Shown piece by piece: positions 3,109 through 64,000 of a stretch of DNA of 64,000 bases. The notes beneath the pieces were generated by a model. It saw only the letters and a list, made by a program, of their open reading frames with translations. It was not told the DNA's origin and did not search any database. The DNA is from a virus (Duplodnaviria; Caudoviricetes). The DNA lies in the IMG/VR virus record IMGVR_UViG_3300017700_000931, positions 192,001 through 256,000 of that record; one strand, written 5' to 3'. The translations under genes and the position numbers were made by a program. How positions within the stretch are numbered: position 1 is the stretch's first letter; the number at the start of each line of letters is the position of its first letter.

Positions 3109-4471
3109 ATTAATCGTATTCGATTTAGATGGGGTGTTAGTTGATGCAAAAGAAATACATTATGAATCACTTAACATGGCTTTAAGTGAAATGAATCCCA
3201 ATTACGTTATTTCTAGAGAAGACCATATTACAAAATATGACGGATTACCCACCAATGTAAAATTAAATTTACTGTCTGACGATAAAGGATTACCAAGAAA
3301 TTCACATGCTGATATATGGCGACGTAAACAAGAGTTAACCTCATCAGTAATCAAAGATAAATTACATTATGATGAAAGATTGAGAGGTGTATTAAAACAT
3401 CTCAAAGATGATGGTTTCAAAATCTATGTGTGCTCAAATTCAATTCGTGAAAGTCTTAAATTAATGCTCTATAAAACCGGATTAATGGAGTTTGTGGATT
3501 ATTTTATTGCTAACGATGACGTAAAACAACCAAAACCTAGTCCTGAAATATATTTGAAAGCAATTATTCATGCCGGAGTTAAACCTAGTGAAACATTAAT
3601 CGTTGAAGACAGTTACCATGGCCGTCAAGCAGCAATTGATTCTGGTGGTAATTTATTTGGTGTTGAATCACCAAATGACGTTACATATGAATCATTAAAA
3701 AATCAAATAAACAAGGTTAGTGATGGTTTAGTTAGTGGAGCCAAATGGTCCGGTGATGATTTTAATATCCTAATACCAATGGCTGGTGCTGGGTCAAGGT
3801 TTGCAAATGCTGGATACACATTCCCAAAACCACTAATTGAAGTTGGTCATAAACCAATGATACAAGTGGTTGTTGAAAATTTAAACATAAATGCCAACTA
3901 CATTTATTTGGTTCAGAAAGAACATTATGAAAAGTATAATTTAAAATATTTGCTAAACCTTATTACACCAAACTGTAAAATAGTGCAGGTTGATGGTGTT
4001 ACTGAAGGGGCTGCATGTACAACATTATTAGCGAAAGAATTTATCGACAATGATAAGCATTTATTAATTGCTAATTCGGACCAATTTGTTGAATGGGATA
4101 GTAATAATTTTTATTATTCAACTGTTGGGGATAAGATAGATGGCTCTATTTTAACCTTCGAATCCACTCACCCAAAATGGAGTTTTGTGAGATTAAATGA
4201 AGAAGGTAATGTTATTGAATTAGCCGAAAAAAAACCAATAAGTAATATTGCAACAGTTGGTATATATTGCTGGACTAAGGGTTCTGATTACGTAAAATAC
4301 GCTGAACAGATGATAGAAAAAAATATTAGAGTTAATAATGAATTCTATGTTGCTCCGGTTTATAATGAAGCAATCGCTGACGGTAAAAAAATAAAAACAT
4401 ATAATATTGAAAAAATGTGGGGCTTAGGAACACCGGAGGATTTAAACCATTTTATTGAAAATTTTAAATAA
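3101..4471 (+). CDS. HAD phosphatase fused to sugar nucleotidyltransferase
   Basis: N-term FDLDGVLVD, KPSPEIY, VEDS; C-term IPMAGAGSRF..PKPLI, ANSDQ, LAEKKPIS, WGLGTPEDL. Confidence 0.85.
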   Translation: MIKLIVFDLDGVLVDAKEIHYESLNMALSEMNPNYVISREDHITKYDGLPTNVKLNLLSDDKGLPRNSHADIWRRKQELTSSVIKDKLHYDERLRGVLKHLKDDGFKIYVCSNSIRESLKLMLYKTGLMEFVDYFIANDDVKQPKPSPEIYLKAIIHAGVKPSETLIVEDSYHGRQAAIDSGGNLFGVESPNDVTYESLKNQINKVSDGLVSGAKWSGDDFNILIPMAGAGSRFANAGYTFPKPLIEVGHKPMIQVVVENLNINANYIYLVQKEHYEKYNLKYLLNLITPNCKIVQVDGVTEGAACTTLLAKEFIDNDKHLLIANSDQFVEWDSNNFYYSTVGDKIDGSILTFESTHPKWSFVRLNEEGNVIELAEKKPISNIATVGIYCWTKGSDYVKYAEQMIEKNIRVNNEFYVAPVYNEAIADGKKIKTYNIEKMWGLGTPEDLNHFIENFK

Positions 4472-62091: not shown

Positions 62092-62511
62092 TTATTGGTT
62101 ATTTAAAAATGTGTTTAGTTCTTCTTTATTGTTTGCGTATTGGGCTTCAATCGGGTTATCGTTTGTATCCCATTCAATTCTATTTCCGTCTGAGTCAATC
62201 GGGTAAATAACCCAGAGTTTTTGTATTCTATCGTAGAAGTATTCAAAGCCTTTTTTCTGGTAGGTTTTCATTTCTTTCATGGCTATTTTTTTCAATTGTA
62301 TTTTACCCCATTTATTAGCAATATCAAAACGAACTTCTTTTTCAATATCACCAAATTGAAGTGTTAACACCTCTCCAATCCCACCAACAATTAACGCAGA
62401 GGTAATTTCTTTATTTGTTTCATTTTTAGCAACTAAAAATTTGCGACCTTCAACCTCAACAATTTTAATATTGTTATCAAGGTATTGTATTATTTTACCT
62501 TCAATTTTCAT
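62092..62511 (-). CDS. Hypothetical protein (possible internal start at 62280)
   Basis: ORF; duplicated 17-nt start context. Confidence 0.5.
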   Translation of the reverse strand: MKIEGKIIQYLDNNIKIVEVEGRKFLVAKNETNKEITSALIVGGIGEVLTLQFGDIEKEVRFDIANKWGKIQLKKIAMKEMKTYQKKGFEYFYDRIQKLWVIYPIDSDGNRIEWDTNDNPIEAQYANNKEELNTFLNNQ

Positions 62512-62513
62512 GG

Positions 62514-62672
62514 CTATTTTTTAAGTTGAATTTGTTCACGAATACATTTTGCCATTCGTTCGAGGTGGTCTGCTTTATCCTCATCGGAGCGGTTTTGTTT
62601 GTAGGTATCGAATAAGCGTTTTTCTTCTTTCTTCAATTCCTCTAGCCGGAGTGCTTTATTGTTTCCTTTCAT
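62514..62672 (-). CDS. Small charged protein (52 aa; not in ORF track)
   Basis: MKGNNKALRLEELKKEEKRLFDTYKQNRSDEDKADHLERMAKCIREQIQLKK. Confidence 0.55.
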   Translation of the reverse strand: MKGNNKALRLEELKKEEKRLFDTYKQNRSDEDKADHLERMAKCIREQIQLKK

Positions 62673-62688
62673 TTGGGTAGTTAATTTG

Positions 62689-62868
62689 TTACCAAGCCAT
62701 TACGCTATATGGGTTATAGCCTTGTGTACGTAATTCATCTCTTAGTTTAATGAATTTTTTTTCACTTACTTTAAAAACTGAGGTGTTGGTACTGGCTTCA
62801 ATGAATGTTACCTTTGGTAATATTTTTTTGAATATTGGTTCGTTTTGTTTTGCGATTAATACGTTCAT
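62689..62868 (-). CDS. Small hypothetical protein
   Basis: Start MNVLIAK at 62868, downstream of TATATTTG at 62903-62896. Confidence 0.55.
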   Translation of the reverse strand: MNVLIAKQNEPIFKKILPKVTFIEASTNTSVFKVSEKKFIKLRDELRTQGYNPYSVMAW

Positions 62869-62949
62869 GTGGTTTAGTTTATTAGTTTGACAGGACAAAT
62901 ATAAAACAATATTTGATATAAACCTAATTTTTTATGAATTATTTTTGAA

Positions 62950-63004
62950 TAAAAAAAGAAAAGTCCCTAGTGTAGTTTTGGTTAGCTACGATACTAGGGA
63001 CTTT
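62950..63004 (-). terminator. Long terminator hairpin
   Basis: AAAGTCCCTAGT..ACTAGGGACTTT 12-bp stem with inner GTAG/CTAC; T-rich tail on minus strand. Confidence 0.75.
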
Positions 63005-63252
63005 ATAACCAATAAACATGAAGTAACCAGCTGCATGTATCTTTTTGCGTTGTTACGCAAATGGGAGGGGACACAAATGATAAACTACATACGTCTCATC
63101 TATCAATTGTTAATAAGTTCCGTTGTCGTACTAACAACTTCTTTATTAAGTCCCCATGTATCTTAAAACACTATCAAAGTCCCATAATTAATGACCTTTG
63201 GGTATTAGTAGACGGAACGGTCATGCGCCCTACTTTGGTAATGTTAATTTAG

Positions 63253-63323
63253 CGCACGAGGTGGGACTCGAACCCACAACTATCCGTTGAAAAGACGGTG
63301 CTTTACCAGTTAAGCTACTGTGC
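63253..63323 (-). tRNA. Degenerate tRNA (Lys UUU-like anticodon; pseudo-tRNA)
   Basis: D arm GCTT-AACTGGTA-AAGC, T arm GTGGG-TTCGAGT-CCCAC; acceptor GCAC-AG/CTCGTGC lacks one nt; anticodon stem only 4 bp CCGT/ACGG with loop CTTTTCA; no CCA. Confidence 0.7.
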
Positions 63324-63627
63324 TGGGGTTTCCCCCATTTTAGGTGTGCACACCTACTAAGGCCGTACCTTGCCTTAGTGCTACGTTTGGTCAGACGGCC
63401 ATCCAACCTAAAGGGGTGTTTGCTTGCCCACTTTTGCTATTCGGCAACCTCTGTCAACCGCCTTGTTGGGAGGTTGTACACATTATGCCGATACTAGCTT
63501 CTTTCAACCGCTTGGTACACACCGGAGCGAACTCCGAAAACCTAAGCGGTTATCATATCTATTGTTGTCACTTTATCGGGTTTGCTGGTCTTGGTAGGAC
63601 AACTCACCTTAACACCCAACTGAGGAA

Positions 63628-63659
63628 CAAAGATAAAACAAATATTTCATTCCACCAAA
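63628..63659 (-). promoter_or_regulatory. Bacteroidota-type promoter driving the ncRNA
   Basis: TTTGGTGGAAT..N20 spacer..TATCTTTG. Confidence 0.7.
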
Positions 63660-63665
63660 TTATTT

Positions 63666-63857
63666 TTAATCTTTTTTAAAAATAATGAAGAACATATTTA
63701 CAAACGCCCCAACAATTCCACCAATCAACGGAATTAAAAAATTCCAGTTTGCTGGGTCATGGTTAATAATGTAATCTGCACCCTCAACAATTCCCCAAAT
63801 TGCACCTGAAATATATGCAATTGCACAAAGGAAGTGAATCAAAATGTTCATAGCCAT
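63666..63857 (-). CDS. Small two-TM membrane protein
   Basis: Two hydrophobic helices. Confidence 0.6.
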   Translation of the reverse strand: MAMNILIHFLCAIAYISGAIWGIVEGADYIINHDPANWNFLIPLIGGIVGAFVNMFFIIFKKD

Positions 63858-63882
63858 ACGGTTACTTTTTTATGTTTTGATG

Positions 63883-63965
63883 ATAACATTAGGTAGTGAC
63901 CTCGTGCCGTTGATAAGAATTACGCTTTCGCCACCTCAACGTGTGTATCCTCTACCTAGTGTTAT
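63883..63965 (-). ncRNA. Candidate structured 5'-leader RNA
   Basis: Closing stem ATAACACTAGGTAG/CTACCTAATGTTAT (13 of 14 paired), inner CGTTGA/TCAACG stem, GC-GAAA-GC loop. Confidence 0.45.
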
Positions 63966-64000
63966 TGTTTTAGATTACTTTTTCATAACGGGGCGTGTTT

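Follow-up and report, generated by a model that had tools for sequence, protein, structure and literature searches.

A candidate early non-coding RNA with a stable 5' domain and a defective tRNA-like module in a Bacteroidota jumbo phage

The virus record IMGVR_UViG_3300017700_000931 of IMG/VR spans 362,532 bp and carries direct terminal repeats; the stretch analysed here, bases 192001-256000 of that record (64,000 nucleotides (nt), referred to as the window), encodes the portal protein, the large terminase subunit and the major head protein. On the minus strand of the window, at 62950-63622, lies a unit of about 670 nt that combines an early-class promoter, a GC-rich and very stable 5' domain, a defective tRNA-Lys(UUU)-like cloverleaf, a looser 3' part and an intrinsic terminator, with no credible open reading frame (ORF). 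Our preferred reading, to which we assign a probability of about one half, is that this unit is a genuine early-class non-coding RNA gene whose 5' RNA would act as the effector, whereas the tRNA-like module would be a processing handle or a mimic and not a decoder. Coordinates below refer to the window unless marked as genome positions.

The phage is a 362-kb jumbo phage of a Bacteroidota host, and its promoters are of the Bacteroidota type (TTTG, 19-21 nt, TAnnTTTG). The promoter of the unit (63659-63628, minus strand) has its -33 TTTG at 63659-63656 and its -7 box TATCTTTG at 63635-63628, separated by a spacer of 20 nt (TTTG-N20-TATCTTTG); this is the arrangement of the Bacteroidota sigma-A promoter (-33 TTTG, 19-21 nt, -7 TAnnTTTG), and the site falls in the extended TTTGGTGGA...TATCTTTG class of this phage. 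The window has 9 sites of the Bacteroidota pattern where 2.4 are expected, most of them of the extended class and on the minus strand, so the strong host-type promoter proposed in an initial annotation of this DNA can be assigned to an enriched early promoter class. Genome-wide, 69 such sites are found, and the promoter of the unit is among the few of the TTTGGT type with no ORF behind them. The 30-35 nt of the promoter recur elsewhere in the genome and in related phages. Transcription probably starts some 6-8 nt after the -7 box, yielding a predicted non-coding transcript of about 665-673 nt (62950-63622, minus strand). At the other end, the long terminator that had been noted at 63004-62950 is a strong 12+4-bp hairpin (63004-62960; stems 63004-62993/62971-62960 and 62989-62986/62975-62972) followed by UCUUUUUUU, a U-tract reaching 62950; the same feature was recorded as inverted repeat I1.

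Between these two signals, little could be translated. The longest sense ORF is at most 58 amino acids (aa; 63406-63230, minus strand) and overlaps the tRNA-like element, and an antisense ORF of 111 aa (63344-63679, plus strand) opposes all neighbouring genes and crosses the promoter. No small ORF on either strand of the unit matched Pfam or PHROGs, and a search of 5.8 billion proteins returned no homologue of the 111-aa ORF, nor even the ORF itself as a called protein. The region had been described as devoid of a credible ORF, and it is. Direct reading also shows that the TCAAACTAA leader, present before the next gene, is absent from the unit; the genome holds 20 copies of this leader on the minus strand and 3 on the plus strand. 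Pairing of the unit's RNA to this early-gene leader was considered and rejected, as the unit holds no complement to it.

The tRNA-like element occupies 72 nt (63252-63323, minus strand) and gives the sole above-threshold Rfam match in the window, at 63323-63253, with 41 bits against the tRNA model (RF00005; threshold 29). ARAGORN calls it a tRNA-Lys(UUU). In the cmscan alignment the D arm, the T arm and the variable loop are canonical, but four features depart from those of a decoding lysine tRNA. A bulged C interrupts the acceptor stem, which has 6 bp where a decoder has 7; the anticodon stem has 4 bp instead of 5; the anticodon loop CUUUUCA places a C at position 37, at which 55 of the 57 phage tRNAs have a purine; and the discriminator is G73, whereas the two tRNA-Lys(UUU) genes of the phage have the A73 of lysine identity. 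The initial annotation had spoken of an embedded degenerate tRNA, and these defects make that description concrete; with the promoter class, they likewise support its wider view of a non-coding unit with a host-type promoter and a tRNA that is no longer a normal decoder. CCA is not encoded. The element ranks near the bottom of the above-threshold tRNA-model matches in the genome; its best identity to another phage tRNA is 81% and that to tRNA-Lys(UUU) is 71%, which indicates that it is not a recent copy of the latter genes. Its fold is unremarkable (z-score -0.8). In isolation the 72 nt adopt the cloverleaf at -18.5 kcal/mol, compared with a minimum free energy (MFE) of -19.0 kcal/mol; within the full transcript the cloverleaf lies 4.3 kcal/mol above the MFE structure, because the 3' acceptor strand can pair instead with GGCGCAUGA at 63229-63221 (minus strand), but it is energetically still accessible. 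Two further identities for the element were considered. A transfer-messenger RNA (tmRNA) was not found by ARAGORN in tmRNA mode, run on the whole genome and on the unit at relaxed thresholds, and Rfam gave no such match. An attP-type tRNA fragment was rejected, since no integrase was seen beside the unit and the cloverleaf is complete, not a 3' fragment.

The whole unit folds with an MFE of -220.9 kcal/mol and a z-score of -8.3 against dinucleotide shuffles, and its 5' 300 nt stand out statistically. This 5' domain (63324-63622, minus strand; 299 nt, GC content 0.49) has a z-score of -4.3 and pair probabilities of 0.91-1.0. Random 300-nt windows of the same genome (n=62) gave a mean z-score of -0.41 with a standard deviation (sd) of 1.14 and a minimum of -2.98, which places the domain 3.4 sd beyond the genome background in stability. 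It comprises a composite hairpin with a UUCG-capped inner stem (63552-63505), a branched domain (63498-63436) and further hairpins at 63434-63410, 63408-63389, 63379-63356, 63355-63342 and 63337-63324, all on the minus strand; the last of these ends right where the tRNA-like element begins. The antisense strand has a comparable z-score of -4.1, and the strand was therefore assigned from the promoter, the terminator and the orientation of the tRNA and not from folding. Three loops of the 5' domain hold self-complementary tetranucleotides, namely UGCA (63355-63342), GGCC (63408-63389) and GUAC within AAGGUACG (63379-63356). These may be chance or a by-product of palindromic DNA; yet loops of this type are those that form symmetric kissing contacts in oligomeric RNAs.

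Composition follows the same division. Over 63622-63252 the GC content is 0.49-0.50, compared with 0.33 for the genome (32.7%), and it falls to 0.36 over 63251-63005. Where this 33% GC genome has ORF-free islands that reach 45% GC or more, they mostly coincide with tRNA arrays or tRNA-like elements, which suggests that the composition of the unit is kept by selection on RNA. The initial annotation had described some 670 nt of GC-elevated, ornate structure; this holds for about 370 nt, but not for 63251-63005. That 3' part (63005-63251, minus strand; 247 nt) is weakly structured and statistically unexceptional (z-score -1.7). Within it, GGGGAC/GUCCCC closes a three-way junction (63155-63067) and UUGCGU/ACGCAA forms a hairpin (63060-63045), both on the minus strand. 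Most of the helices that had been listed by eye are also favoured in the computed ensemble, with pair probabilities of 0.92-0.98: AACCGCTT/AAGCGGTT, GGAG-UUCG-CUCC, ACTAAGGC/GCCTTAGT, AGGTG/CACCT, TGGGG/CCCCA, GTTGT(T)/(G)ACAAC and TTGCGT/ACGCAA. Others fared worse. The proposed long-range GGGTGTT/AACACCC helix is present as sequence but costs +13 kcal/mol if forced, and for CAACCT/AGGTTG and ATGACC/GGTCAT the ensemble prefers competing alternative pairings. Missing from that list was a predicted 17-bp long-range helix between 63571-63553 and 63021-63005 (minus strand; pair probability 0.93-0.98). Shuffled sequences or genome segments match its duplex energy of -22.2 kcal/mol in about 1% of cases. 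Modelling suggests that this helix would close the whole body of the RNA, linking the last nucleotides of the 3' part to the 5' domain, although the choice among multiple possible windows tempers its significance.

The initial annotation had favoured a GOLLD-type RNA or a new giant RNA. Infernal searches of the whole 362-kb genome at E<=10 returned no match to GOLLD (RF02032, the conserved 3' domain) and none to ROOL (RF03087); for ROOL the control genomes also gave none, and this negative depends on the model search only. A permissive scan of 62500-64000 with all 4227 Rfam families (E<=10) yielded the tRNA and nothing else. On these model searches we reject membership of the GOLLD or ROOL family; the unit could still encode a new giant RNA. 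RNase P RNA, 6S RNA, signal recognition particle (SRP) RNA and group I and II introns were rejected for want of any Rfam signal, as were small ribozymes and HEARO and similar guide RNAs; a replication origin or iterons were rejected because the unit contains no repeat arrays. The RNA of the unit belongs to no described family.

Relatives were sought in 21 whole records, in fetched loci and by exact patterns. The unit gave no match by blastn in distant mode against 50,697 phage records, and no paralogue by BLAST within its own genome. Against 20 related IMG/VR records, defined by a large terminase subunit about 70% identical, BLAST aligned the promoter and the T arm only. A single-sequence covariance model of the 5' core (R1) recovered only itself in 21 records and 21 loci. 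The tRNA signature pattern was not found in IMG/VR and had two chance matches without a tRNA in GTDB representative genomes, and two scans of IMG/VR for the unit with mixed exact and purine/pyrimidine patterns gave no matches. Syntenic metagenomic loci (L106-L115 and L122-L131) were fetched through homologues of the neighbouring 211-aa protein. The gene for this protein is conserved in them, but the non-coding gaps are unrelated in sequence. Three loci resemble the window in having a long non-coding gap upstream of the 211-aa homologue, from which a few small genes separate it. One of these gaps (L115:1198-1892) has an early-type promoter and a terminator around some 600 ORF-free nt; another (L109:4302-4866) contains a tRNA-Phe (4362-4435) that also has C37, together with a GC-rich 3' extension; and the third (L106:3812-4390) holds about 300 GC-rich nt. 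None could be aligned to the RNA of the unit, and their folds are weaker (z-scores of -1.2 to -2.5).

The element is not the only tRNA shape in this genome that departs from a normal gene. Of the 57 tRNA genes that ARAGORN finds, almost all belong to islands at 9-73 kb of the genome, and a CCA-adding enzyme/poly(A) polymerase family match (PF01743, 129 bits) in a 388-aa ORF (genome 59889-60254, minus strand) adjoins these islands, a position that fits tRNA genes without an encoded CCA. RtcB was not found among the phage-encoded proteins. Only 4 of the 69 genome-wide tRNA-model matches lie outside the islands: the 63323-63253 element, a canonical tRNA-Met at genome 296163, a weak match at genome 290084 and a 58-nt tRNA-like element at genome 311813-311870 (L120:614-671, plus strand; 37.7 bits). 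The last has acceptor, D and T arms, with 3 nt in place of the anticodon arm; it is flanked by two 78-aa ORFs, with an early-type promoter upstream, and might serve as an RNase P/Z punctuation site in an mRNA. A degenerate tRNA-like element inside the 9-73 kb zone, at genome 67523-67588 (L137:1024-1089, minus strand; 23.7 bits), keeps its acceptor and T arms intact, while the D and anticodon arms are degenerate. Here an early-type promoter is followed by a structured leader of about 140 nt, the tRNA-like element and, directly downstream, an ORF (L137:655-990, minus strand) related to the PTH2 family of peptidyl-tRNA hydrolases (29.9 bits against a cut-off of 23); immediately after the in-frame stop that precedes it, this ORF offers no ATG, GTG or TTG start. 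There are thus three non-decoding tRNA-shaped modules inside predicted early transcripts of this phage, of which the two besides 63323-63253 keep both the acceptor and the T arm. Common to all three is the part of a tRNA that is recognized by RNase P, RNase Z and CCA-adding enzymes.

Further ORF-free zones of the genome contain tRNA-like or structured sequence. A look-alike of the Bacteroidales small SRP RNA (genome 24793-24898, L117:94-199, minus strand) scores 52.1 bits against a threshold of 55.2, and the 1.3-kb ORF-free zone around it (24.7-26.0 kb) contains an aberrant tRNA, with an unreadable anticodon and C37, and tRNA fragments. An ORF-free GC island of about 600 nt at genome 289.8-290.45 kb (L116:800-1450, minus strand) holds T-arm/acceptor-like fragments of the GGGGGTTCGAATCCC type, called neither by ARAGORN nor by Rfam except for one tRNA match of 14.8 bits. 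TTTGGT-type promoters at genome 264923 and 266240/266459 (all on the plus strand) have no ATG-initiated ORF of at least 40 aa within 200 nt; they adjoin GC islands at 265108-265421 and 266837-267040, which have no Rfam matches, and are possibly the promoters of additional non-coding units.

The analysis shows the layout of the transcription unit, its lack of coding capacity, the defects of the tRNA and the exceptional fold of the 5' domain; its transcription, its processing and any target are what we infer. As a non-coding RNA gene, it would be transcribed by host RNA polymerase from the sigma-A-type promoter up to the intrinsic terminator. The product would comprise three modules: a 5' RNA some 300 nt long, compact, GC-rich and very stable; a cloverleaf resembling tRNA-Lys(UUU), in which the D/T elbow and the greater part of the acceptor stem persist but features for normal decoding and charging are lost; and a looser tail of 250 nt. 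The D/T elbow and the acceptor stem are the part of a tRNA by which RNase P, RNase Z and CCA-adding enzymes recognize it. The tRNA-like module most likely acts as a processing and stabilizing handle, with RNase P cutting on its 5' side and an RNase Z-like nuclease on its 3' side; such cleavage would free the 5' RNA, with its terminal hairpin, to act as the effector. The module may also, or instead, mimic tRNA-Lys and occupy tRNA-directed host factors. The phage's own CCA-adding-family protein agrees with this reading, as does the precedent of the phage T5 tRNA-Lys, a variant with an altered anticodon stem-loop that counters the PARIS defence (PMC11464382).

Several observations weigh against this proposal. 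In the computed ensemble the 3' acceptor strand takes its downstream partner and the acceptor stem has a pair probability of about 0; moreover, the bulge in this stem, or the hairpin that abuts its 5' side, could hinder RNase P. The 3' 250 nt are barely more structured than background. No homologue of the RNA turned up in any collection searched. Finally, the locus seems to be a slot in which non-coding cassettes turn over quickly, given that the syntenic gaps of distant relatives hold unrelated non-coding sequence.

Other explanations account for parts of the same evidence. That the unit is a divergent giant ornate RNA of the GOLLD/ROOL type or a self-assembling analogue, with the tRNA in a linker between two domains, appears quite improbable. 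GOLLD consists of a 5' and a 3' region, the latter conserved, with a linker that sometimes contains tRNAs, and many of its members exceed 800 nt (bioRxiv 10.1101/2024.12.08.627333). Like GOLLD, whose function is unknown, the unit encodes a large phage non-coding RNA with a tRNA between 5' and 3' parts, and its GGCC, GUAC and UGCA loops could in principle form symmetric loop-loop contacts. However, the resemblance is limited to this layout of 5' domain, tRNA and 3' part. At about 670 nt the unit is shorter than many GOLLD members; its well-folded part is the 5' one and not the 3' one; it lies 185 kb from the tRNA islands, whereas GOLLD is often near such islands; and it is a single sequence without a family, in a phage of a Bacteroidota host. 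Neither the model searches nor the permissive scan of the locus lends the idea any help, and without homologues nothing shows that an 'ornate' architecture is conserved. ROOL is likewise phage-borne, highly structured, about 600 nt long and ORF-free, but the unit differs in having no match to the ROOL model and no tRNA-island context. It is also doubtful that the element is an ordinary decoding tRNA-Lys(UUU) gene, the long leader and trailer being precursor sequence that is degraded. Its score exceeds the Rfam threshold, the D arm, T arm, U33 and UUU anticodon are all present, the phage has its own CCA-adding-family gene, and the other isolated tRNA, that for Met at genome 296163, is canonical. 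Yet the low score rank, the short anticodon stem, C37, the bulged acceptor stem and G73 all speak against decoding, lysine is already served by two tRNA-Lys(UUU) genes and one tRNA-Lys(CUU) gene of the phage, and it would be surprising if a disposable leader were the most stable 300 nt sampled in the genome. Least probable by far is a missed protein-coding gene. The 111-aa antisense and 58-aa sense ORFs are its candidates, but a GC-rich patch in an AT-rich genome is expected to contain long ORFs, neither candidate matches Pfam or PHROGs, one runs against its neighbours and across the promoter while the other overlaps the tRNA-like element, and the unit has no TCAAACTAA leader of the kind seen before the next gene.

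Two further alternatives are somewhat less remote, although we regard each as unlikely. By analogy with known phage counter-defences, the element might be an anti-defence tRNA-Lys, either a decoy or a cleavage-resistant substitute directed against a host anticodon nuclease of the PrrC, RloC or PARIS AriB type that attacks tRNA-Lys, in which case the flanking RNA would only stabilize it. Predicted early expression from a host-type promoter would suit this role, and the Lys(UUU) identity, with changes concentrated in the anticodon stem-loop, parallels the tRNA-Lys of phage T5, in which stem-loop changes block cleavage by PARIS AriB at positions 40/41 (PMC11464382). C37 also recurs in the tRNA-Phe of a distant relative's syntenic gap (L109:4362-4435). 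The T5 molecule, however, is a working tRNA, whereas the element here has additional acceptor, discriminator and position-37 defects and is embedded in a 670-nt unit. These defects argue against replacement of tRNA-Lys, so that only a sponge version fits, and for this we found no precedent; searches for the signature in IMG/VR and in GTDB representative genomes did not find it. The unit might instead be a decaying relic, either a cassette without its gene or a displaced piece of a tRNA island, that keeps its promoter and terminator but has no function. The degeneracy of the tRNA, the failure to find homologues and the unrelated sequence in the equivalent gap of relatives would all agree with decay, as would the other zones without ORFs that abound in tRNA fragments (24.7-26.0 kb and 289.7-290.4 kb). 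Neutral drift should nonetheless move sequence towards AT and erode pairing, and we consider a relic less likely because 370 nt remain at 50% GC, the 5' domain is exceptionally stable, and both the promoter and the terminator remain intact, at consensus quality. In addition, the covariance model sees no tRNA remnants in the 5' domain.

If the unit is a non-coding RNA gene that is expressed and processed as proposed, it would provide a compact and testable case of a phage RNA in which a tRNA mimic is a working part. Together with the two other elements, it would point to tRNA-shaped processing signals in jumbo-phage early transcripts. More tentatively, and with the balance of probability against it, the unit could be the first representative of a class of large RNAs, new to Bacteroidota jumbo phages, that join a highly folded effector to a non-decoding tRNA mimic; on a broader view, the phage may use its three tRNA-shaped modules as punctuation or handles in early transcripts, in which case host tRNA-processing enzymes would be recruited to mature or stabilize early RNAs. 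GOLLD, ROOL and other large structured phage RNAs rank with the least understood classes of RNA, and to our knowledge no large structured RNA of this kind has been established for Bacteroidota phages. What we describe is a well-defined candidate, a singleton that is new in sequence and comes from a phage of an uncultured host, and not a demonstrated new RNA class.

In kind, the unit falls within what is already known, namely the tRNA-associated structured RNAs of phages, and two sets of precedents lie closest to the role that we favour for it. tRNA-like processing handles are exemplified by mitochondrial tRNA punctuation, by the mascRNA of MALAT1 and by the RNase P maturation of the C4 RNA of phages P1 and P7. 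As in these systems, a non-decoding tRNA shape inside a longer transcript keeps the acceptor/T-arm and elbow determinants; unlike them, the unit has an acceptor stem that is bulged and abutted by a hairpin, and its cleavage is here a proposal. The stable RNAs of phage T4 (species 1 and 2) are about 140 nt long, lie within a tRNA cluster and are co-transcribed with its tRNAs. The unit differs from them in its length of about 670 nt and in its place outside such a cluster, and no relation in sequence is expected; like them, however, it would encode a structured phage RNA of unknown function made from the same precursor as a tRNA-shaped module.

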